Made by a program: the position numbers and the translations under genes. The notes under the pieces were generated by a model. The model did not search any database. It saw only the letters and a list, made by a program, of their open reading frames with translations, and was not told where the DNA came from. This document shows positions 8,275 through 22,873 of a DNA stretch of 35,441 nucleotides, piece after piece. Each line of letters opens with the position of its first letter. Position 1 is the stretch's first letter. The DNA comes from a virus (Duplodnaviria; Heunggongvirae; Uroviricota; Caudoviricetes), in the IMG/VR virus record IMGVR_UViG_2529293216_000013, one strand, 5' to 3'.

Positions 8275-8613
8275 CTATTTCCCTGAATTTACGACGAAAC
8301 TGTTCGAGCGGGCTGAAGCACTCATGCTCATAGCCTTCGCGGAGGTAGATAACCCGTTGTGTTTCCGGTTCCCAACGAATGACTCTGACGGGCACTCCGT
8401 AGTGATCTTTGAACCAGCGGTTAACTTGTCGCAAAGGACTGTCTCCTTTTGCCTGTTGAAATCACCCACAGCCCACTCTGCAAAGCTGTGGGTTACAATT
8501 TCCCTGTCACCTGGTACATTCACTGCATAGCAATACTCCACCTTCGCTTTTCCACCCGGTACAGGAAGTGCAATCAGTTGCGAGCGACGGTAGTGTGTTG
8601 TTAAACTGTTCAT
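8275..8613 (-). CDS. Hypothetical ORF between CII-like and O-like genes; frame ambiguous
   Basis: 112 aa ORF in one frame; a second minus-strand frame (8255..8434) has AAGGAG plus TTG start and a more protein-like product ([58 protein letters not shown]) ending in overlap with the O start. Confidence 0.3.
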
Positions 8614-9161
8614 GCGTTAGTTTCTCCACAGTCACGACACGCCACGGCGCCCGGAGCTGCACACTCGCGGGCGTCATTACTTTCTGAAATGCAAAAAATT
8701 TTGTAGACCAGTGCTGCATGCTCCTGCAGCTTCGAAATTGAGAGGTACAGCTCGTCGTTAATTGCTGTCTTCTCATGCGGTTCCACTACACCGTCTTCAA
8801 TTGCTGAACGAATCTGTTTTGAATAACTGCCGATCTGTTCAATGACCTCCAGCAGGCGTTGGTTGATATCGGCGTTGTCCACATCCTCGACATCAGGAAG
8901 AGACACAAAGACGCCATTTGCAGACTGCGCCACAGCGTCAGCAATGAAGTGAGTTCCACCAGCACGTTGCAAAATCATTGCCCATCCCAGCGGGAAAATC
9001 TGATCGCCATCGGCACGAAGGCGGTTAAATAATGCGTTCTCTGTTACATCCAGCCAGTCAGCAGCTTCAGCGTACCCCCCCGGCAACGCTGCGATAGTTT
9101 TTCTGACAGCTTTCACGTACCACTCAGGCTGTTTTTCTACTTTCCAGTGATGCTTACCCAC
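8610..9161 (-). CDS. CII/YdaT-like prophage regulatory protein (putative)
   Basis: 183 aa; immediately downstream of the Cro-like gene with overlapping start/stop; family assignment from memory only. Confidence 0.4.
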
Positions 9162-9414
9162 GGTTCACCTCCTGTTCCTGTGGTTTAAACCCATTCTGGT
9201 TTTGGCTAGATTGAAAACGTGCCGGATAAAGAATCTGCATTTCGCTGACTTCACCCTTAAAAAAATTGGCTAAACGTTCTGCAAGCTCGATAGATGGAAT
9301 CTGCTCCAGCCTCTCAATACGACTCAACGTCGCTGGATTGACTTGAACACCCGCAGCAACATGCTGCAAAGTGAAACCATGCGCCTTACGCACATTTCGT
9401 AATGGTGATTGCAT
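9154..9414 (-). CDS. Cro-like HTH repressor (XRE family)
   Basis: 86 aa; HTH GFTLQHVAAGVQVNPATLSRIERLEQIPSIELAERLANFF; divergent from cI across an operator-rich 97 bp spacer. Confidence 0.65.
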   Translation of the reverse strand: MQSPLRNVRKAHGFTLQHVAAGVQVNPATLSRIERLEQIPSIELAERLANFFKGEVSEMQILYPARFQSSQNQNGFKPQEQEVNRG

Positions 9415-9424
9415 ACGCCCTCCA

Positions 9425-9495
9425 AATATTGCGCGTTATGCATGTTATTTCACGCAATTATTTTGCGCAAGTTGATTTGCTTATCACGCAATAAA
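9425..9495. promoter_or_regulatory. Right operator/promoter region (OR-like) between cro-like and cI
   Basis: Repeated half-site motifs ATTGCGCG, CACGCAAT (twice) and palindromic TTGCGCAA in the divergent intergenic region. Confidence 0.5.
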
Positions 9496-9511
9496 GAAAT
9501 GTAATAAACGC

Positions 9512-10204
9512 ATGAACATAGGAAACCGAGTCAGACAACTTCGCCAAGCGAAGAACATGAAAATCGCCGATCTCGCTGAAGCGATAGGAGTAGATGCGGC
9601 GAACATCTCGCGCTTAGAAACGGGTAAGCAAAAACAATTTACCGAACAAACACTGAGTAATATTGCCAAGAGCTTAGGTGTTGATATTGCTGATCTCTTT
9701 ACCTCTGCCCACAAAAGTAATACTGTATATAAAAACAGTAATAATGAGGATGTTGCGCAGGTGAAGGATGTGTTCCGTATTGAAATGCTGGATATCAGTG
9801 CCAGTGCGGGAAATGGCCTTATCCAGGGCGGTGATGTCATTGATGTGATTCATGCCATCGAATACAGAACTGATAATGCTGTATCAATGTTCGGCGGACG
9901 ACCAGCCAATCACATCAAAGTTATCAACGTTCGTGGGGACAGTATGTGTCCAACCATTGAGCCAGGAGATCTCATCTTCGTTGATGTCAGCATCAATCAG
10001 TTTGATGGTGATGGTATATATGTCTTTGGTTTTGATGACAAAATATACGTTAAAAGACTTCAAATGATTCCTGACAAACTGCTGGTGATTTCTGATAACC
10101 AGATTTACCGTGAATGGGGAATTACTAGCGAAAACGAACACCGATTCATGGTCTTTGGAAAGGTCTTAATCAGTCAGTCGCAAACCCTTAAGAGACATAA
10201 TTAA
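9512..10204 (+). CDS. cI: CI-type prophage repressor (HTH plus S24 LexA-like autopeptidase domain)
   Basis: 230 aa; N-terminal HTH (MKIADLAEAIGVDAANISRLETGK); C-terminal S24 motifs VRGDSMCPTIEPGDLIFVD and YVKRL (Ser/Lys dyad). Confidence 0.85.
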   Translation: MNIGNRVRQLRQAKNMKIADLAEAIGVDAANISRLETGKQKQFTEQTLSNIAKSLGVDIADLFTSAHKSNTVYKNSNNEDVAQVKDVFRIEMLDISASAGNGLIQGGDVIDVIHAIEYRTDNAVSMFGGRPANHIKVINVRGDSMCPTIEPGDLIFVDVSINQFDGDGIYVFGFDDKIYVKRLQMIPDKLLVISDNQIYREWGITSENEHRFMVFGKVLISQSQTLKRHN

Positions 10205-10223
10205 CCTCAATATCCCATCCATC

Positions 10224-10248
10224 GGCCACCGAAAGGTGGCTTTTTATT
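10224..10248 (+). terminator. Rho-independent terminator downstream of cI
   Basis: GGCCACC-gaaa-GGTGGC hairpin followed by TTTTTATT. Confidence 0.65.
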
Positions 10249-10256
10249 ACCTATAA

Positions 10257-10295
10257 ATTTGCATATCTCGCAAATACCACTTGCATATCTCGCAA
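10257..10295. promoter_or_regulatory. Left operator-like tandem dyads (OL-like)
   Basis: Two copies of TTGCATATCTCGCAA (inverted TTGC...GCAA arms), sharing the TCxCGCAA core with the OR-region sites. Confidence 0.45.
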
Positions 10296-10502
10296 TTTAA
10301 TTTTATCTTTTATTCCAGACCAACTACAGGATTACAACAAAATCTGGTTGCAACACGGTGCATGTGTCGTAAGCAGTCAGTAAATGTCAAAAACGAACAG
10401 GCAGGACGCCCACGAAGTAGCCGCCTGGGGCATATGAAGTCCAGGATGATTCGTTGAGTCATGTTGTGCCACTAGGCACTCATGTTAAAGCAGGTGTATG
10501 AA

Positions 10503-10778
10503 ATGAAAGTCCAGATTTTAAACAATAACTGTGAAGTCGTTTGGTCATACGACATAGCCGCCCCTGTAGATCAGAGCGGCGATAGCTGGACCAATGGGAA
10601 ACATCAGATTATGGCTGGAGTTGTGTTCTCTTTACGCCGTGCTTTAGAACAGGCTGAAGTCTTTCCATCAGACCCTGAATGGAAATGGCCTTTTTCTATT
10701 TGTCCAAATTCGGAGAGTACATTTCAGAAAATTGGTCAGAAAGTCGCACTCGAAGAGCATCAGCCAACTGTTTCCTGA
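10503..10778 (+). CDS. Hypothetical protein downstream of cI (rex-position cargo?)
   Basis: ORF with AGGTG Shine-Dalgarno before ATG at 10503; no recognisable motif; 3' end overlaps a convergent ORF. Confidence 0.3.
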   Translation: MKVQILNNNCEVVWSYDIAAPVDQSGDSWTNGKHQIMAGVVFSLRRALEQAEVFPSDPEWKWPFSICPNSESTFQKIGQKVALEEHQPTVS

Positions 10779-10941
10779 TTTTTTCAGGTAACTCGTCGGC
10801 ATCGCAGAAACAACAACGCTCGATCATGTTGAAAGCCGATTCGTAGAACTGTTTTTGCTGAGTGTCGCTGAGACAGGAAAAGAGCGACGTTACGATGATT
10901 TTATTAATTGCATTATCAAGTTCTTTTTCATCAAAAGTCAT
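10696..10941 (-). CDS. Hypothetical small protein (81 aa)
   Basis: Protein-like composition (MTFDEKELDNAINKII...); convergent 83 bp overlap with the previous ORF, so one of the two may be spurious. Confidence 0.3.
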   Translation of the reverse strand: MTFDEKELDNAINKIIVTSLFSCLSDTQQKQFYESAFNMIERCCFCDADELPEKIRKQLADALRVRLSDQFSEMYSPNLDK

Positions 10942-11442
10942 TTGATTTTCCTTTTATGTATACGGGCTTAAAAGGATACCACCGAGCCTGAAGTGGTGAA
11001 AAGACAGGCACATAACAGCTAAGTATTTTCAACCAGAGAGAATCCTTAGCGTTGTGGTGAATGCGGCTCAGCGCACGCGGGTTAAGGTTGAGGCTGACAG
11101 TCGACCTTCTGTGGATACCCACCCGCCTGGTGTGCAACCTTCGCCAGGCACCGGGAGGCACCCGGCACCACAACTTTATGCTGTGTGTAGTCTTAGCGGT
11201 ACCAGCTTGTACCCTTGCTTCCGGCTGGTACCGTCCTTTTTACAAAACAGAGAAGAGCATCACCGGACGACGGGCTCATAACCCAATCCATCCGGGCGGC
11301 TGCCACCGCAGGTGTATAGCGCGGCGATTTTTTTGATACCGATTTGCATTTCATTTGATACCGCTGAAAAACGCCGATACGCAACTTATTTGATACTAAA
11401 TCGGCGCTTTTCTTTTGAGTTTTAGAATGAGTTTTTAAGCGC

Positions 11443-12180
11443 TCATTCACTCTCTTTCAAACCAGTTTTAACTGTTTGTGGTTTTGGGTAAGGCTGGACT
11501 TTGAATAGCTTTGTGTTGAGGCGTTTTCTGGCCCTCTTGTTCAGAAACCGGATGTAACGAAACTGTCGGAACTTATGAACACTGGCTCTGTCAATATTAG
11601 CCCTCAGATGTTCACCTCGTTGTCCGCCTCGTTTAATGGCATTCCTGCAAATCTCGTGATACCACTCGCCATCAAGTTCATAGAATATTGATTCATGGCT
11701 GCCTACATAATCAAAATTGCTTGCCTGATACACGACACCAAGACAGCCACAACGCTCATCTGCAAACGACTGAACCCACTGTACCTGCGGATAAAGCTGC
11801 CTGATTAGCTTGAGCGCGTAACTGATTGCCCTTGATTCGGAGTTTCTCGGCATACAGTCATGCAGCCATAGCCGGTTAAGCTCCATATATTCTCGGTTCT
11901 GCGTACCCGTTACGACGCGTGCACCACTGTTTGGGTTAAGGGCGTAACCCCATTGCATTACGCCAACAAGTTCCCGTTCTGAAAATATGCCCAGATGAAG
12001 GTAGGAGTTATTTACGAAACGGTGGCTGTAATGTTTATTGACGATGACCAGTCTGGCCAGCCAGCAACTTATTGTCTCAACCCGCAACTCACGGGAGCCA
12101 TAACCAACGATATTGTCGTTATAGCGAATAAGTTCAGGCGTGCTGATGATTCGGGATGTGACTTGCTTTCTGTTCCCCAC
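11443..12180 (-). CDS. mom: Mom-like DNA modification protein (GNAT-fold acyltransferase family), putative
   Basis: 245 aa; GNAT-like C-terminal signature [12 protein letters not shown]; start overlapped by a Com-like zinc-finger gene exactly as in phage Mu com/mom. Confidence 0.5.
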
Positions 12181-12334
12181 GACAGGATTTCCTTGTGTAT
12201 GTGGGGTGCTCTGTGGCGCTCGGAGATGTGATTTGATTGAGGGTTTTACAGCGCGGACATTTTACTTCCAGATAACTGAAACTGGCCCGTGCCAGTAGCT
12301 TATTGCAGTGTCGGCACCGTATGTTTCGATACAT
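12134..12334 (-). CDS. com: Com-like zinc-finger translational activator
   Basis: [34 protein letters not shown]...EHPT resembles Mu Com (IRCKNCNKLL...IRCPRCK...EHPT) as recalled; AGGAGG upstream of the internal ATG; 3' end overlaps mom start. Confidence 0.6.
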
Positions 12335-12364
12335 GACCGCATAACCTCCTGCTTTGTTGTTGAT

Positions 12365-12400
12365 GCCTTTCTCATGCAATCGATCGACAAAAACGATCGA
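12365..12400. promoter_or_regulatory. GATC-rich putative com/mom promoter region
   Basis: Two CGATCG sites (GATC at 12371..12374 and 12384..12387) plus TCGAT repeats within about 30 bp upstream of com. Confidence 0.3.
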
Positions 12401-12448
12401 TTCGATTTGTTTAATTGATACAACAAATAGATTGAAAAGTCATCAACA

Positions 12449-12913
12449 ATGATTCAGGGAGGTGATTATTTACTTAAAGAAAACGAAGAGTTAGGTGGTG
12501 AAAACGATCATAAAATGATCATTTTATTGACTTTTTATACAGTGAAGGTAGGATCACGCGTATATGTAGTATGTTTCAAATCAACAGGATACTACATAAA
12601 AGTGAAACCCAGCATAGCTGGAACTATGCTGGGTCAATCTGTAAAAACTTGCATCAATGCTTTACTTCGAGCTCGTGGCGTATCCTATGATATTCCCCGG
12701 TCTCCTGTAAAGCAGAGATGCATAAAAAGGAGATCTTTATCATGGATGAAAGAGCCTGTTTGCCCTGCCTGTAAGACTCCCTTACAGCTCATCTATCGCC
12801 GTTCTCGATCTCAAAATGGCAAGACATACAAACCCAAAAATGCTTCCTGTTTCAGGATGCTGATATGTCCTGCCTGTTCTCCCAGGAGGGAAAATACACA
12901 AAACGTGCATTAA
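12449..12913 (+). CDS. Hypothetical protein with C-terminal double CPAC zinc-ribbon motif
   Basis: ...VCPACKTPLQ...(26 aa)...ICPACSP; N-terminal part is low-complexity and may not be coding. Confidence 0.25.
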   Translation: MIQGGDYLLKENEELGGENDHKMIILLTFYTVKVGSRVYVVCFKSTGYYIKVKPSIAGTMLGQSVKTCINALLRARGVSYDIPRSPVKQRCIKRRSLSWMKEPVCPACKTPLQLIYRRSRSQNGKTYKPKNASCFRMLICPACSPRRENTQNVH

Positions 12914-12951
12914 CAAACTCACCCGGCAGGGAAACCTGCCGGTCGGTATTG

Positions 12952-13197
12952 TTACATCATAGTACCGTCAGTTCCGGGCTGAACCGGCTCTGGTTGCTCT
13001 ACGGGTTGAGGATCATTTTCCGTGCTGTTTTCAGCCGGAGAACGGCCAACCATTCGGGCCAGCACTTCATCAACATATGCGTCGATTTGTGCCTCAAAAT
13101 CCTTGCGAACCTGCGCCTTCAGCACGCGGTTCACTTCTTCAGAATAAAGTGCCTGTTTGACAAGCTCTTCAGTAACCGTGCCTTTAATCTCTGGCAT
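12952..13197 (-). CDS. Hypothetical acidic small protein (81 aa)
   Basis: AAGGAG Shine-Dalgarno 7 nt before ATG; acidic, Pro/Glu-rich C-terminus. Confidence 0.4.
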   Translation of the reverse strand: MPEIKGTVTEELVKQALYSEEVNRVLKAQVRKDFEAQIDAYVDEVLARMVGRSPAENSTENDPQPVEQPEPVQPGTDGTMM

Positions 13198-13232
13198 GAA
13201 TATTCTCCTTTTGCAGGTATATTGCCCCGTTA

Positions 13233-13415
13233 TCAGAGCGGGGTCGGGTCGTTTGGGGATGACGGTGCCTGTGCTGTTTTACTGAGTTTTTCAGCTGCCG
13301 CATCATCAATTTTACGGCGAATATAATTTCTGATGACCTTATAACCACCGCTCACCAGATATAACGCACTGACCACAGCGCAGAAATAAAGCAGCATTGT
13401 ATGAACGAATGTCAT
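13233..13415 (-). CDS. Hypothetical small membrane protein (60 aa, one TM)
   Basis: Hydrophobic segment MLLYFCAVVSALYLVSGG followed by basic stretch. Confidence 0.35.
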   Translation of the reverse strand: MTFVHTMLLYFCAVVSALYLVSGGYKVIRNYIRRKIDDAAAEKLSKTAQAPSSPNDPTPL

Positions 13416-13561
13416 ATAACCTTACCTTTGATATTGACTACATAATTCGTTATCGGGTAAAAACATCGAAGCGACTGATAACCACTCCTTCGGGAGTATT
13501 TTTATTTTCCTTTATGGGTTAGGTAGCTCCCGCCAGCCATATCATGACCGGCGGGATTTTT

Positions 13562-15601
13562 TTATTCTGTTACCGCTTTTTTCACTTCCACCACAATGCT
13601 GTCAATCAGCACCGGGTAAGTTGCATTTTTTGTGATATCCGTTACGCGGAGTTTGTCCACCGGGAAAGTTCCTACTGGTGACTGCGTCAGGGTAAACGCG
13701 GCACCATCCTGACCATCAATAACCGGAATAACCTGAAGGCTGTTATTTCCTGCAAAACGGAAGGCCAGCGTATGCCATTCATTATCAAATGCACCAAAGG
13801 TTCCCAGTTTCTGGTTATTTGTTGCCACTTTTGCATTGTGGTACATCACATTCAGGTCTTTTGCGTCTGTCTGGATGTAGAACGATGCCAGCAGATTATT
13901 CCCTGCATCCCCTGTCAGGGTGACACCCTGCGGCAGAGAGGAAACCGGCCAGTAAAGCCCCATGACATACTGGTTTGCCACCAGGTCGCCAGGTACTTTA
14001 AAACGACAACTGATTAAACCACCATTTTTCAGCAGTTCAGCACCAGTACCGGCATCATGATCCAGATACCAGGATGATTTACCTGTTTCCTTGGTCAGTT
14101 TCATTGCCTTACCACCTGTGCCTCCTGCATCACTGATAATTTCAGCTTTACCGCCAGCCGGCTCCCAGCCCTGGGCTTTCAGATTTCCTTCTGACTCACT
14201 GACACGATAAGACAGCAGTGTTGTGGTTACTGCTTCAGTTTCTGAAGGTGACGGCACTGGTGCTTCAGTTTCAGAAGATGGAACATCGGCTTTTACTGTG
14301 GTTCGCCCCGCATGAGTCAGAACTGCCGTGGCCAGACGGTCGGAAATAATCCCACGACGTGCCCATGAACTGAAATGGCTGGCCCGGTCCGCAGATGTCC
14401 AGGTGGCGGCACTGTTACGCCACGTTGAGCCGTAATAACCAATGGATTCAATATCCGGGTCTTCTGCCGGATTGTTGGTGGGTACATTCGCGTCATTTTC
14501 ATCTGTCATTAATGGAACGAAATGAATGTTTTTATCTGTTTTGTTTTTGTAGCCGCCATAGATTGCCTGGTATGCCGGTTCATTTTTCTGTTTCCAGAAA
14601 TACGTGGTATCGCCACAAATCCACGGAACGCCAGCAGCACTGCCACCGGTACACTGTTCCGCCTGTTCAGCCAGGTCTGCGCGGAATTTTTCCACCATCG
14701 CCAGAAACAGCGCGGAATGCTCCGTCGGCTTCGCATCAATATCAAACTCGCCCTGCATCCACACCACAGCAAGCAGGCGGTTTTTCGGGTTCTTCGCCAG
14801 TGCCGCTTTTGTCCGGCTGATTAAGTCCTTATACAGCGGCTTATCCACACCCCAGCGGGCTGAGTCCTCTGAAGCACCCGTGCTGTCACTGTACGTGCCG
14901 TCAGCACCCGCCGTGAATGCAGAACCACCACGGCAGCAGGGAACCAGCAGAATCCCCGCATCTGCCGGAATAAACGGCAGCAGTTTTTTGGCAATGTGAA
15001 GCCCCTGACCCACGGTGCCATATTGCCCTTTAGCCACATCCGCTTTCGGGTGATTTTTTCCACTCATATCCTGCACATCATGCAGACAGTGGTCGGCCAG
15101 AATGATGTCGTTATACTGACAGGCTTTACCTCCCGGCGTGACTGTACTGCGACGGGCTAACTGCATAATACGCGGTTCGGGGCGGTCATATGTCTCCGGC
15201 AGTGGCAGACCTTCACCGTAAGCCATACCGTTTGACTGACCAGCAAGAACCACCACGTAATACCAGGAAGGGGAGCTGGAAGCAGTTTCATTTCCTGACG
15301 GACGGGTATGTGTTTCAGCATTATCCCAGTCTGACGGTTCAGCAGTACCGGCAACATCAGCACTTAACGGAATGACCGCACCAATACCCGCTCCGGTAAT
15401 TTCCACACTCGGATCACCGGATACTGGCCTTACCCACAGGCAATCCCGTGTATTAAAACTGATGAGACAGTCAGCAAATGTCATTCCTCCTTTTGTTTCG
15501 GCCGGAGGAAAGGGAGCCTCAAGAAATGCCGCTGTACCACCGGAAACTTTAACAGTAAAGTTTCCGGGCATTGATGATAGTTGAACCCATTTGGACGTCA
15601 T
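13562..15601 (-). CDS. Prophage sialate O-acetylesterase-like protein (NanS-p-like, SASA/SGNH esterase core)
   Basis: 679 aa; motif VVVLAGQSNGMAYGEG (GQSN catalytic Ser motif); size and architecture resemble NanS-p paralogs of E. coli prophages. Confidence 0.65.
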   Translation of the reverse strand: MTSKWVQLSSMPGNFTVKVSGGTAAFLEAPFPPAETKGGMTFADCLISFNTRDCLWVRPVSGDPSVEITGAGIGAVIPLSADVAGTAEPSDWDNAETHTRPSGNETASSSPSWYYVVVLAGQSNGMAYGEGLPLPETYDRPEPRIMQLARRSTVTPGGKACQYNDIILADHCLHDVQDMSGKNHPKADVAKGQYGTVGQGLHIAKKLLPFIPADAGILLVPCCRGGSAFTAGADGTYSDSTGASEDSARWGVDKPLYKDLISRTKAALAKNPKNRLLAVVWMQGEFDIDAKPTEHSALFLAMVEKFRADLAEQAEQCTGGSAAGVPWICGDTTYFWKQKNEPAYQAIYGGYKNKTDKNIHFVPLMTDENDANVPTNNPAEDPDIESIGYYGSTWRNSAATWTSADRASHFSSWARRGIISDRLATAVLTHAGRTTVKADVPSSETEAPVPSPSETEAVTTTLLSYRVSESEGNLKAQGWEPAGGKAEIISDAGGTGGKAMKLTKETGKSSWYLDHDAGTGAELLKNGGLISCRFKVPGDLVANQYVMGLYWPVSSLPQGVTLTGDAGNNLLASFYIQTDAKDLNVMYHNAKVATNNQKLGTFGAFDNEWHTLAFRFAGNNSLQVIPVIDGQDGAAFTLTQSPVGTFPVDKLRVTDITKNATYPVLIDSIVVEVKKAVTE

Positions 15602-15700
15602 AATAATCAGCCTGTTCCTGAATAAACTGAATTATCATATCCACAGACCGATAAACGCCATTTTGCGTTAATTCAGTAAAGGCCCAACAAAGAGAGCGTC

Positions 15701-16261
15701 TTATTTTTCCGAAACGCTCGCAGGATAATAACGATAAAGGGTTGAAAGGCCGATATCAAAAATAAGTGCCACCTGTCTTCGACTGACACCCCCGGCCAGT
15801 AAACGCCCGACCTGCTCGTATTGTTCCTGCGTGAGACGACGGGGTCTGCCGCCGGTTCGTCCCCTTTCACGGGCAGCTGCAAGACCAGCCCGTGTCCGTT
15901 CGACAATTAATTCACGCTCCATTTCTGCCAGCGCACCCATTATGTGAAAAAAGAAGCGCCCCATGGGGGTTGACGTATCAATGTTGTCAGTAAGACTACG
16001 AAAATTTATCCCCTGTTGCTGTAATTCATCTGTCAGCGCAACAAGGTGGCGCATACTGCGCCCCAGCCTGTCCAGTTTCCAGACCATCAGTGTGTCACCG
16101 GGTTTTAGTTTCTTCAGTGCCCGCTTCAGTCCCGGCCGCTGTGTCGTTTTACCACTCATTTTATCTTCAAAAATCTGCTCACATCCTGCACATTCCAGCG
16201 CATTTCTTTGTAAACCTGTGTTCTGGTCATTTGTTGATACGCGTATATAGCCAATCAGCAT
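15701..16261 (-). CDS. pin: Serine recombinase DNA invertase (Pin/Hin/Gin/Cin family), copy 1
   Basis: 186 aa; MLIGYIRVSTNDQNTGLQRNALECAGCEQIFEDK...GRSMRHL...C-terminal HTH; close match to e14 Pin as recalled. Confidence 0.9.
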   Translation of the reverse strand: MLIGYIRVSTNDQNTGLQRNALECAGCEQIFEDKMSGKTTQRPGLKRALKKLKPGDTLMVWKLDRLGRSMRHLVALTDELQQQGINFRSLTDNIDTSTPMGRFFFHIMGALAEMERELIVERTRAGLAAARERGRTGGRPRRLTQEQYEQVGRLLAGGVSRRQVALIFDIGLSTLYRYYPASVSEK

Positions 16262-16687
16262 GTATTTACCTTCCTTAAAAAGAGGTGGAAAGGCCTTTTA
16301 AAGCAGATATACGGCATCCCTGAAACCTTCGGTTTACGGGATACTGTAAACAGGGCCGCGAATGCCCTGCCATCGAACGGAGCGGCTGTTGCAGCGAATA
16401 AACTCGCCACTCCAAGAAATATTAATGGTGTCCCATTTGACGGAACGCAGGATATAAATATTACATCGGGGATGACGCAGTCTGTGGCTGACTCACGTTA
16501 TGTTCAAAGCATTCGAAGAGGTTCAAGGTCAACGATTGGAATGCAATATAATATTTTTGAGGTTCCTGACGGATGCGTACTTACAGGGCTTGATGTCGCT
16601 GGTGATGGTAATGCAACGGTAACCGCATATTATCGACCTGTTCAGTTTCTGATAGATGGTTCGTGGAAAACAGCTTCCAGCGCATAA
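16262..16687 (+). CDS. Tail fibre variable C-terminal segment (Sv), 5'-truncated (no constant part)
   Basis: Open frame from 16238 without start codon; ...LATPRNINGVPFDGTQDINITSGMTQSVADSRYVQ...AYYRPVQFLIDGSWKTASSA. Confidence 0.55.
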   Translation, partial: VFTFLKKRWKGLLKQIYGIPETFGLRDTVNRAANALPSNGAAVAANKLATPRNINGVPFDGTQDINITSGMTQSVADSRYVQSIRRGSRSTIGMQYNIFEVPDGCVLTGLDVAGDGNATVTAYYRPVQFLIDGSWKTASSA

Positions 16688-17715
16688 AAGTGCAGTAGTT
16701 CAAAAAACAGATTATCTGAATAAATATATGATGATTTTGTCTTTTCAACAAAAACAAGGTGAAATAATGGAGCTTATTAACGTAAAACGATATTACCCGG
16801 AACACAAACCCTATGGTGAGGATGTTCAGTATTTCCAGAGTGAGGACGGAAGGGATTTTTATGAATCTATCCCGCTTTTCACAAAGAAATACAAACTCTG
16901 TATTTCGCCTGTAACGGGTATTATCTGCTCTGTTGCTGAAGATGTCTCTGCTTTATATCCGGCAGGTTTTACTGTTGTTGAAGTGGACGAACTGCCGGAA
17001 GGTGTGAATATTGACGGTAACTGGCAGTTTTCTGATGGCCTGATATCAAAGGTGCCGGTAAACTGGAAGACGGTTGCTGAAAAGCGCCGCTCATCGCTGC
17101 TCCAGGAAGCCAACGAAACTGTGGATGACTGGAAAACGGAATTAAAACTGGACATGATTAGCGATGAAAATAAATTACAGCTGACGCGCTGGATGGCGTA
17201 TATCCGACAGCTTAAAGAAATGCACTTTAATGATATTGCCAGTGAGGGGCATTACCAGGCGATTCCCTGGCCGGAAAAACCGGAATAATTCAGAGGGTGC
17301 ATTCAGCACCCTTTTCTGTGGTTTACACTGAACTTACCGTTCTCCAGGCATTATTAATATAAATCTGAACCGGGCGATAATAGACCCCACCGATATTGTC
17401 CGCAGACCGGGAGCCGGTTTCCTGCACGTTAATTCCGGAAAGCATACAACCGGAAGGTGCGCTGTAATTCCATGACATTTCATTGCCTCCGGGTGAATGA
17501 TAGCTCTGTGCTCCAAGCTGAACATTCTGTACATACCGGCCATCTGCGGTTGACTGCGTCATTCCTGACGTGATGTTGATATCCAGCGTTCCGTCAAAAG
17601 GAACACCATTAATATTTCTTGGGGTGGCGAGTCTGTTTGCTGCCACGGCGGTTCCACCCGATGGCAGGGCATCAGCAGCCTTATTTACCGTTTCCCGTAA
17701 ACCAACGTTTAAGAA
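16318..17715. mobile_element. Invertible tail-fibre segment (G/P-segment-like) between inverted crossover sites
   Basis: gix/cix-like sites AAACCTTCGGTTTACGGGA near 16320..16343 and inverted partial copy near 17692..17712; both lie inside tail-fibre reading frames at the conserved ...GLR(D/E)TVN(R/K)AA(N/D)ALP... junction. Confidence 0.55.
16767..17288 (+). CDS. Tail fibre assembly protein (Tfa/U-like)
   Basis: Start MELINVKRYYPEHKP with Shine-Dalgarno; C-terminus ...LTRWMAYIRQLKEMHFNDIASEGHYQAIPWPEKPE typical of Tfa chaperones. Confidence 0.7.
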   Translation: MELINVKRYYPEHKPYGEDVQYFQSEDGRDFYESIPLFTKKYKLCISPVTGIICSVAEDVSALYPAGFTVVEVDELPEGVNIDGNWQFSDGLISKVPVNWKTVAEKRRSSLLQEANETVDDWKTELKLDMISDENKLQLTRWMAYIRQLKEMHFNDIASEGHYQAIPWPEKPE

Positions 17716-21483: not shown

Positions 21484-21529
21484 ATTCGTAATGCGAAGGT
21501 CGTAGGTTCGACTCCTATTATCGGCACCA
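21484..21529 (+). tRNA. 3' fragment (about 46 nt) of tRNA-Thr (thrW-like); attL core of the P4-like element
   Basis: ATTCGTAATGCGAAGGTCGTAGGTTCGACTCCTATTATCGGCACCA matches the thrW 3' half as recalled; upstream sequence does not match the tRNA 5' half. Confidence 0.65.
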
Positions 21530-21691
21530 TCTCAACTTCCTCAAACGTCCGTATTAGTCCATAAAATCTCTGATTTATAACATTTTTTATTCTTTTAAGT
21601 CCATAGTAGTCCGTAACCATCCAGTAGAATCCGGTACTGAATGTGTATAGGATTGTGTATATGTTCCTGTTCGGTCTGGATTCCTATACAC

Positions 21692-22873
21692 ATGCCTTTA
21701 AACGATATGCAGATTCGCCGCGCTAAGCCTGAAGCTAAAGCCTATACATTTGGAGATGGGCTAGGGTTGTCATTACTTATAGAACCTAATGGAAGCAAGA
21801 GTTGGCGGTTCCGCTATCGCTATGCCGGCAAACCCAAAATGATCTCGCTTGGTGTTTACCCAACGATCACCCTTGCCGATGCTCGTTCCCGTCGTGATGA
21901 AGCTCGAAAACTTGTGGCAGAAGGAAAGAACCCTAGTGAGGTTCGAAAAGAGCAAAAGCTAGCTATGCAAACAGAGTCAGAGAACGCCTTCGAAAAGATA
22001 GCCAGAGAGTGGCATCAACTTAAATCTGCTAAATGGTCGGCGGGATATGCATCAGACATCATGGAAGCGTTTAAGAACGACATTTTTCCTTATGTCGGAA
22101 CAAGGCCTGTGGGAGAGATTAAACCGCTAGAGCTGCTGAACGTTCTGCGTAAAATTGAGAAACGTGGTGCGTTGGAGAAAATGCGCAAAGTGCGGCAGCG
22201 TTGCTCCGAAGTGTTTCGCTACGCAATTGCAACGGGTAGGGCGGAGTACAATCCTGCGGCTGATCTCTCCAGCGCTCTCGAAGTACACCAATCCAATCAT
22301 TTCCCATTCCTAAAAGCTGATGAGATACCTGATTTTCTACGTGCCTTAGAGGGTTACTCCGGGAGTAAGCTTGTCCAGATAGCCACGAAATTACTGATGA
22401 TTACGGGTGTGAGAACCATCGAATTACGCGCGGCATTATGGCAAGAATTTGATCTGGATAACGCTATTTGGGAAATTCCTGCTGAAAGGATGAAAATGCG
22501 TAGGCCACATCTTGTGCCCTTATCATCTCAAGCGGTAGATTTACTCAATGAACTCAAGATCATGACAGGGAACTATCGTTATGTTTTTCCAGGGCGGAAC
22601 GATCCGAATAGGCCAATGAGCGAAGCGAGTATAAATCAAGCCATTAAGCGTATTGGGTATGGAGGAAAAGTCACTGGACATGGTTTTCGTCATACCCTTT
22701 CTACAATCCTGCATGAGCAAGGTTTTGAGAGTGCTTGGATTGAAATCCAGTTGGCTCATGTAGATAAAAATTCTATTAGGGGGACTTATAACCATGCTCA
22801 ATATTTTAGTGGAAGGAAGTCTATGATGGACTGGTACAGTAATTTGATATTTGAAAGACTAAAAAGGAGTTAA
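21692..22873 (+). CDS. int: P4-type tyrosine integrase
   Basis: N-terminus MPLNDMQIRRAKPEAKAYTFGDGLGLSLLIEPNGSKSWRFRYRYAGK...; C-terminal catalytic region HGFRHT...; adjacent to tRNA fragment. Confidence 0.85.
   Translation: MPLNDMQIRRAKPEAKAYTFGDGLGLSLLIEPNGSKSWRFRYRYAGKPKMISLGVYPTITLADARSRRDEARKLVAEGKNPSEVRKEQKLAMQTESENAFEKIAREWHQLKSAKWSAGYASDIMEAFKNDIFPYVGTRPVGEIKPLELLNVLRKIEKRGALEKMRKVRQRCSEVFRYAIATGRAEYNPAADLSSALEVHQSNHFPFLKADEIPDFLRALEGYSGSKLVQIATKLLMITGVRTIELRAALWQEFDLDNAIWEIPAERMKMRRPHLVPLSSQAVDLLNELKIMTGNYRYVFPGRNDPNRPMSEASINQAIKRIGYGGKVTGHGFRHTLSTILHEQGFESAWIEIQLAHVDKNSIRGTYNHAQYFSGRKSMMDWYSNLIFERLKRS

Follow-up and report, generated by a model that had tools for sequence, protein, structure and literature searches.

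The 35,441-bp window analysed here, that is, the whole of the tailed-virus DNA stretch held as IMG/VR record IMGVR_UViG_2529293216_000013, carries a phage repressor gene, cI, beside a divergent cro-like gene, and copies of one short dyad lie on both sides of cI. The locus raises the question of what the sites beyond cI control. A sequence-only reading had seen in the two groups of sites the right and left operators (OR and OL) of a single repressor, had found no obvious leftward operon after the OL-like sites, and had suggested that the left arm was lost or replaced. We propose, with a probability of roughly 85%, that the dyads represent OR together with a two-site OL at the early leftward promoter (PL) of an ordinary CI/Cro switch of the SfII/SfV type, and that the operon served by PL has been severed by a Mu-like prophage.

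One dyad family on both sides of cI

The dyad is 15 bp long, of the form TTGC(N7)GCAA/T with the consensus TTGCRTAWYWCGCAA, and four copies surround cI. Two lie in the cro-cI gap and two past the cI terminator, as listed here with the proposed operator assignments and the genes that they flank; PR denotes the early rightward promoter, HTH a helix-turn-helix domain, and the bit scores refer to the weight matrix described below.

9154-9414, minus strand: cro-like gene, 86 amino acids (from the list of open reading frames; Pfam HTH_3, E 5e-10; Cro in the SfII annotation)
9429-9443, no strand: OR operator on the cro side (TTGCGCGTTATGCAT), 17.2 bits; covers the predicted PR start and has the same position in eight relatives
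9477-9491, no strand: OR operator on the cI side (TTGCTTATCACGCAA), the best matrix match of the window at 19.4 bits; kept in relatives and overlapping the -35 of the predicted cI promoter
9512-10204, plus strand: cI repressor, 230 amino acids, with HTH and S24 autocleavage domains (Pfam HTH_3 and Peptidase_S24; 99% DNA identity to the SfII cI region)
10224-10247, plus strand: intrinsic terminator of cI (terminator scan: 7-bp stem with five GC pairs and a T run; also in the SfII annotation)
10259-10273, no strand: distal operator of OL (TTGCATATCTCGCAA), 18.4 bits; at about -50 from the PL start
10281-10295, no strand: proximal (cI-distal) operator of OL (TTGCATATCTCGCAA), 18.4 bits; covers the PL -35 and spacer

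The divergent cro and cI genes are separated by 97 bp, in which the two strong OR dyads are 48 bp apart. The repressor domains were matched over 9512-10201 (HTH_3, E 1e-11; Peptidase_S24, E 6e-19), and the translation visibly contains an Ala-Gly pair (ASAGNG) and the serine motif GDSM. The hairpin proper of the cI terminator occupies 10224-10241, with the T run after it.

The matrix, 15 bp wide, was trained only on the two cro-cI-gap dyads from each of seven relatives with non-identical repressors (L088-L094; CI identity 66-92%, other genera). These belong to a diverged set of eight loci, with CI 66-100% identical, obtained in a genome_contigs scan from Shigella, Citrobacter, Pseudescherichia, Klebsiella, Trabulsiella and Buttiauxella. 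The whole window was scanned on both strands, with 100 shuffles as background. The four dyads are the top four matches, at 9477, 10281, 10259 and 9429, and the fifth match reaches 11.8 bits. Four matches of at least 16 bits were observed against 0.06 expected per window, and no shuffle contained more than one. A matrix built from the cro-side sites of other genera therefore recovers the sites on the opposite side of cI in the window. When TTGCATATCTCGCAA was searched with up to three mismatches on both strands, four matches were obtained, all confined to 9429-10295, and the motif does not occur at similar density elsewhere in the window, which the sequence-only reading would have taken as refuting its view. 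The stricter pattern TTGC-N7-GCAA also matches four times, at 9477, 10259 and 10281 and at an unrelated position, 31972. The repeat finder grouped 9477-9491, at 87% identity, with the identical copies at 10259-10273 and 10281-10295, whose starts are 22 bp apart.

The strings on which the sequence-only reading was built are all present, namely CACGCAAT at 9451-9458 and 9485-9492, TTGCGCAA at 9463-9470, ATTGCGCG at 9428-9435 and TTGCATATCTCGCAA at 10259-10273 and 10281-10295. The short core TCNCGCAA was rejected as a sufficient signal, as nine occurrences were found against 5.7 expected, which is no enrichment; only the full 15-bp dyad is informative.

Conservation of the sites and their exchange with the repressor

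At least 446 stretches in IMG/VR encode relatives of this CI, and 80 loci were retained. The repressor is 99-100% identical in all 80 and fully identical in at least 78 of them; since the set contains only such near-identical repressors, it is informative for variation in the flanks and not for divergence. Among these loci, 56 distinct versions of the 256 bp after cI were found. The changes cluster in the centre of the distal dyad (10265-10268), in the 7-bp spacer (10274-10278), in the flank at 10252-10257 and at one central position of the proximal dyad. By comparison, TTGCA, CGCAA and the stretch TTTAATTTTATCTTTT hardly vary, the TATCTT box that follows is invariant, and the proximal operator as a whole is nearly so. 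Fixed half-sites around a variable centre are the pattern expected of an operator at which an HTH dimer would contact the outer half-sites. In one natural variant from IMG/VR (L028) a 22-bp unit containing the distal operator has been deleted, so that only one OL dyad is left.

The two-site arrangement extends to the diverged relatives. Two post-cI sites are present in L088, L089, L090, L093 and L094 and in mEp460, at 54-59 and 78-82 bp after cI and with a spacing of 22-24 bp; the same 54-82 bp arrangement is thus seen in relatives from Citrobacter, Trabulsiella and Buttiauxella. The paired sites differ from each other in these relatives, as in Buttiauxella (TTGCGCATTACGCAT and TTGCGCATTTCGCAA) and mEp460 (TTGCATATCTCGCAA and TTGCATAATGCGCAA), with the half-sites retained, and the recognition-helix region of CI, A-N-(I/V)-S-R-(L/V)-E-T-G-K-Q-K, is common to all of them. 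The Klebsiella spallanzanii locus (L092) has a single OL site and the Pseudescherichia locus (L091) half of one. Both are remnants of prophages, cut short right after cI, and therefore represent genuine cases of a lost left arm. An operator-like site of 20 bits also lies in L091 about 850 bp cro-ward of OR (L091 position 574).

Phages SfV and SfIV have the flanking genes in common with the window and possess unrelated cI and cro genes. Their dyad is a 17-bp TGTAC-N7-RWACA, with one pair of copies 50 bp apart between cro and cI and a second pair 20 bp apart directly past the cI terminator. The 10-kb and 5-kb SfV/SfIV loci examined contain no other copies of it and none of TTGC-N7-GCAW, and in the window and SfII the situation is exactly reversed. 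The window becomes homologous to SfV again at about 10393, past the dyads and the initial 95 nt of the leader that follows them, which places the dyads at the edge of an exchangeable immunity module. OL likewise forms the edge of the immunity module in hybrids of the lambda-434 type. The proposal of the sequence-only reading that one operator family stands on both sides of cI is thus upheld by the matrix scan, the covariation in SfV/SfIV, the pattern among the 56 versions and the diverged relatives, all of which agree.

A predicted promoter under the dyads beyond cI

10281-10309, plus strand: predicted PL, TTGCAT (10281-10286), 17-nt spacer, TATCTT (10304-10309), start near 10316; matches the consensus at 7 of 12 positions and reads away from cI

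Matches of 7/12 are common by chance, and the promoter calls made here therefore rest on conservation and not on score. Six diverged relatives show the same geometry, TTGCNN-17-TAT(C/G)(T/A/G)T, namely L088, L089, L090 (TATCAT), L093 (TATGGT), L094 and mEp460. At the homologous place and in the same direction, SfV has TTGACA-16-CATAAT, an 11/12 match, which is overlapped by the dyads of SfV itself. The promoter overlapped by the cI-distal dyad is accordingly predicted to be PL, and the dyad pair would in consequence be OL.

The cro-cI gap

Further elements were assigned in and beside the gap, where PRM denotes the promoter presumed to maintain cI expression.

9379-9393, no strand: candidate extra operator ATGCGCCTTACGCAC, inside cro codons 8-12; fifth matrix match, 11.8 bits
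9442-9470, minus strand: predicted PR, -35 TTGCGC (9470-9465), 17-nt spacer, -10 TAACAT (9447-9442), start near 9435; 7/12 in the consensus scan
9463-9477, no strand: middle element, the palindrome TTGCGCAA with a weak right half; coincides with the likely PR -35, centred at about -42 from the cI start
9477-9505, plus strand: tentative PRM, TTGCTT, 17-nt spacer, TGTAAT, start at the A of the cI ATG; inferred from conservation

The position and start of PR are assigned from its likeness to counterparts elsewhere. In five of the seven relatives (L090-L094) TTGCGC-17-TAATAT stands at the same position, and L088 and L089 retain TAACAT; the counterpart in SfV is TTGAAG-16-TAATAT, with the -10 abutting the cro-side operator as it does in the window. 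On the cI side, TGTAAT lies 6-7 nt 5′ of the cI ATG, without a Shine-Dalgarno sequence, and is kept in eight relatives, while SfV has TTTAAT 6 nt 5′ of its own cI ATG. A hexamer so close to the ATG, with no ribosome-binding site, tentatively suggests that the cI mRNA may be leaderless, as in lambda. The presumed -10 hexamer TGTAAT does not have the usual A at -11.

The sequence-only reading had listed further elements in the gap. Its OR is retained as far as the dyads at 9429 and 9477 are concerned; its other two components are lesser things, TTGCGCAA being an 8-bp palindrome and CACGCAAT at 9451-9458 a lone half-site that is not kept in the more distant relatives. The middle element belongs to a 22-bp palindrome (9456-9477), and within it TTGCGCAAGT is invariant across all relatives. 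It scores less than 3 bits in the window and forms a good dyad in L090 only (14.6 bits). Neither 9463-9477 nor 9456-9470 was accepted as a full third operator, both being below 3 bits in the window, and the middle element is possibly a third, weak operator.

The candidate inside cro stands 50 bp from the cro-side operator. It has a counterpart in all relatives, with 13-17 bits in L090-L094 and about 11 in L088 and L089. The peptide encoded over it, (V/L)RK(A/S)(H/Q), is likewise conserved, so that the operator-like match could be a coincidence of coding, and its assignment as a further operator is uncertain.

The operon that follows the proposed OL

The view that no obvious leftward operon follows the OL-like sites was not sustained, as an untranslated leader, a gene and a small RNA (sRNA) are found there, all co-oriented with the predicted PL.

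10316-10502, plus strand: untranslated PL leader, almost invariant in the 56 versions; 10393-10456 common to SfV and SfIV
10503-10778, plus strand: first gene of the PL operon, 91 amino acids, homologue of SfV orf33 (list of open reading frames; PHROG 3195, E 4e-65; annotated in O157:H7 and SfV)
11021-11243, plus strand: STnc100-like sRNA that has a terminator hairpin of its own (aligned over the full length of Rfam model RF02076 at E 1e-7, with 43 bits where the gathering threshold is 47)

The 10393-10456 part of the leader is also found in Buttiauxella, and about 95 bp (10296-10392) are specific to the immunity type and extra relative to SfV. A hairpin in the leader shows a compensatory change, with CCTGG/CCAGG replaced by CCGGT/ACCGG in some relatives. 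A regulatory RNA of the put or nut kind was considered for the leader and dropped, as the folding of 10316-10480 is not distinctive (z = -0.6). On the minus strand the leader contains a terminator-like hairpin followed by TTCGTTTTT (10413-10397), which may stop leftward transcripts short of PL and cI.

The 91-amino-acid gene is preceded by AGGTG. PHROG 3195 is a family of unknown function, Pfam gave no match for this reading frame (10503-10778), and Rfam found no element in 10200-11020. N and nutL, which directly follow PL in an N-dependent early-left operon, do not occur there, and SfII, SfV and SfIV are described as being without N, cII and cIII (PMC3851460). The reading frame at 10503-10778 (plus strand) is convergent with one at 10696-10941 (minus strand), and the two overlap by 83 bp. 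They belong to PHROG 3195 and 3311, both of unknown function, and are annotated variously between records; at most one of them may be real.

The sRNA ends in a GGTACCAGC...GCTGGTACC hairpin and a T run. As it does not reach the RF02076 gathering threshold it is labelled STnc100-like; at gathering thresholds, Rfam returned nothing in 9000-11400. The STnc100 and PasD families are related (bioRxiv 10.64898/2026.05.13.724894). Over this stretch, SfII is annotated with the coding sequence SfII_35 and PGAP calls a 'frameshifted' pseudogene; the sRNA match at 11021-11243 suggests that both coding calls are probably wrong. In the intact relatives (SfII and the tRNA-Thr prophage of O157:H7) the operon runs on through yfdR, yfdT and xis to int, with two small genes placed between yfdR and xis, and has about eight genes up to xis and int.

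Severance of the operon by a Mu-like prophage

Positions 1-11315 of the window represent the early region of a lambdoid prophage of the SfII/SfV type (e14-like and N-less). Over 9100-11315 the window shares 99% identity with Shigella phage SfII, and the identity is 100% to a prophage that many E. coli O157:H7 genomes carry at tRNA-Thr, adjoining proA. In the window's orientation, the SfII and O157:H7 records have on the minus strand a Q-like antiterminator, further genes including a replication protein, the CII-like YmfL and cro, and on the plus strand cI followed by the terminator. The CII-like protein is encoded at 8610-9161 in the window and belongs to Pfam Phage_CP76, the 186-type CII.

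11313-17709, minus strand: fragment from the right end of a Mu-like prophage, with mom, com, an invertase gene and an invertible tail-fibre segment; 100% identical to the Mu-like prophage of O157:H7

The stretch identical to the native SfII-like prophage reaches 11315, and the one identical to the Mu-like prophage spans 11312-17709. Besides mom (11443-12180, minus strand) and com, the fragment contains an esterase-like gene, a recombinase and a portion of the invertible tail-fibre segment; the Mu-like right end shows TGTATAGCGCGGCG... and repeated TTTGATACC motifs. Judged from these identities, the predicted PL operon is cut at 11312-11316 by the Mu-like right end. The usual site of this Mu-like prophage in O157:H7 is nadB, and the 11313 junction was present in 0 of 5,426 complete E. 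coli RefSeq genomes.

Starting at 17684, the window matches the tail-fibre end of the same SfII-like prophage at 100% identity, and this prophage continues to a 47-bp att repeat at 21484-21530. The second joint consists of 26 nt common to both parents, TTTACCGTTTCCCGTAAACCAACGTT (17684-17709), which resembles a crossover site of the Gin/Pin type (gix/pix), such as the gix sequence of Mu. The simplest history would be insertion of the Mu-like prophage into the PL operon, followed by an inversion in which an invertase recombined the invertible segments of the two prophages; the arrangement suggests an inversion of about 30 kb. A search elsewhere in the window for yfdR, xis and int found none of them, only the 47-bp att/tRNA-Thr repeat, and ARAGORN called no tRNA. 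With its int/xis arm cut off from PL by the Mu-like insertion, the prophage is probably unable to excise normally. The suggestion of a lost or replaced left arm is therefore right in its effect, as the arm is severed, and wrong in its premise that no operon follows OL.

Past the att/tRNA-Thr repeat the sequence belongs to another island, which begins with an integrase gene (21641-22873). This separate island encodes the Hfq-binding RNA isrK and a C4 antisense RNA, at 29407-29484 and 29553-29640 (plus strand), both above the Rfam gathering scores.

The proposed switch and its alternatives

The locus has the features of a lambdoid switch, i.e. a repressor with HTH and S24 domains, a divergent cro gap that contains dyads, the same motif 3′ of cI, and operators that covary with the repressor. 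In the switch that we propose, CI would recognise the 15-bp dyad TTGC-N7-GCA(A/T), and Cro would very probably recognise the same dyad. In the lysogen, CI dimers on OL would occlude PL, with binding that is probably cooperative because the site centres are two helical turns apart, and PR would be silenced by CI bound at OR. OL and OR, which lie roughly 0.8 kb apart, may also be joined by looping. Both operators would be freed once RecA stimulates the S24 domain to cleave itself.

Several observations weigh against this proposal. Matches of 7/12 to the promoter consensus occur at about 25 per kb of the window in a looser consensus scan, so that the PL score is uninformative when taken alone. 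The program's own promoter scan called nothing at OR or OL, the PL candidate included; a promoter near 10300, for which the sequence-only reading had advised looking, is thus found as TTGCAT-17-TATCTT by its 7/12 match and conserved geometry, and was missed by that scan. The use of CI's sites by Cro, which we consider very probable, is assumed by analogy; BLASTP gave no alignment between the N-terminal domain of CI and Cro, and the recognition-helix pattern that the two have in common (SR-E) is visible by eye only. The strongest OR site lies on the presumed -35 of the cI promoter, which would imply simple negative autoregulation and not activation as in lambda. Finally, a search of the accessible literature found no binding, footprint or transcript-start data for this repressor.

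The weakness of the PL consensus is also what lends some credit to a different role for the downstream dyads, in which they would be auxiliary flanking sites of CI, comparable to FL and FR of coliphage 186, that tune OR by looping and overlap no promoter. The phage has a CII of the 186 type (Pfam Phage_CP76), and the distance of about 0.8 kb to OR would suit looping. We nevertheless regard auxiliary sites as improbable. The TTGCNN-17-TATNNT geometry is kept in six diverged relatives, TATCTT is invariant in the 56 variants, SfV has its 11/12 promoter under its own dyads at the same place, and the intact relatives have a co-oriented operon to xis and int without any other candidate promoter. It is more improbable still that the downstream dyads arose as a neutral 22-bp tandem duplication, or serve another protein (a host factor or the CII-like activator), with a merely coincidental likeness to the OR sites. 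The two copies are identical in the window and L028 has lost one of them, as tandem repeats would do; against this, the two copies in the relatives differ from each other and both retain the half-sites, variation among the 56 sequences avoids the half-sites, the motif switches together with cI and cro in SfV/SfIV at both loci, and matrix scores of this height are expected by chance only 0.06 times per window.

Since the dyads are symmetric, TTGCGA could also act as a -35 on the minus strand, where a 7/12 candidate exists at 10323-10294, and the dyads would then govern a leftward promoter that makes RNA antisense to cI. This appears the most improbable of the explanations considered, given that no conserved minus-strand -10 is found at the right distance, that the transcript would meet the cI terminator hairpin head-on, and that the strong promoter of SfV faces the opposite way.

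An OR and a two-site OL/PL remain our preferred assignment, and within it a bolder scheme may be considered, one that we hold to be unlikely. The SfII/SfV group would have a minimal '2+2' switch with a logic unlike that of lambda. Two strong OR dyads 48-50 bp apart, one at the PR start and the other over the -35 of a leaderless cI promoter, would be paired with a two-site OL at a distance of only 0.8 kb. In this switch CI is purely self-repressing, lysogeny is stabilised by a four-dimer loop between OL and OR, and no antitermination of the N type takes part. This scheme would include the possible extra site in cro and the immunity-specific leader at 10296-10392.

Comparison with known systems

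The switch resembles that of lambda in its HTH repressor with a RecA-cleavable S24 domain, in the divergent cro, in one operator family on both sides of cI, in an OL located 3′ of cI over a predicted co-oriented promoter, in a cI mRNA that is probably leaderless, and in the exchange of operators along with cI and cro between heteroimmune relatives. It differs from lambda in several respects. The dyads are 15 bp and not 17 bp long; two strong OR sites 48 bp apart and two OL sites stand in place of OR1-3 and OL1-3; OL and OR are 0.8 kb apart, whereas the distance in lambda is 2.4 kb, and no rex genes lie between them; and the strongest OR site is on the -35 of the predicted cI promoter. In addition, N, nutL, cIII and a cII of the lambda type are absent here (PMC3851460).

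SfV and SfIV are alike in gene order and flanks, with OR dyads 48-50 bp apart, post-terminator dyads 20-22 bp apart and a PR -10 that abuts the cro-side operator. They differ in the dyad itself (17-bp TGTAC-N7-RWACA against 15-bp TTGC-N7-GCAW here), in the PL of SfV, which is near consensus, and in the roughly 95 bp of immunity-specific leader (10296-10392) that the window has in excess. The Shiga toxin (Stx) phage 933W, in work of 2004 by Tyler, Mills and Friedman, is said to have a lambdoid switch whose OL contains two operators only, as here; it reportedly differs from the window in that OR has three sites, an N antiterminator is present and the operator sequences are unrelated. In coliphage 186 the promoters face each other, CI does not belong to the S24 proteins, and FL and FR overlap no early promoter. 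The window is like 186 in its CII of the CP76 family and in having repressor sites a few hundred bp away from the main switch, and unlike it in that these sites lie over a conserved promoter-like element.

In the SfII GenBank record only the terminator is annotated in this region, with no operators, and the SfV record has only a 'putative operator region' between cro and cI. A search of the accessible literature on SfV, SfII and e14 operators found no definition of the operators. The mechanism that we propose is textbook lambdoid regulation, for an immunity type whose operator definition we did not find in the literature. The results provide an operator and promoter map, with the promoters as predicted here, for a type of immunity very common among E. 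coli, Shigella and some Stx phages; the map can be used in annotating prophages, in predicting common immunity and in judging inducibility.

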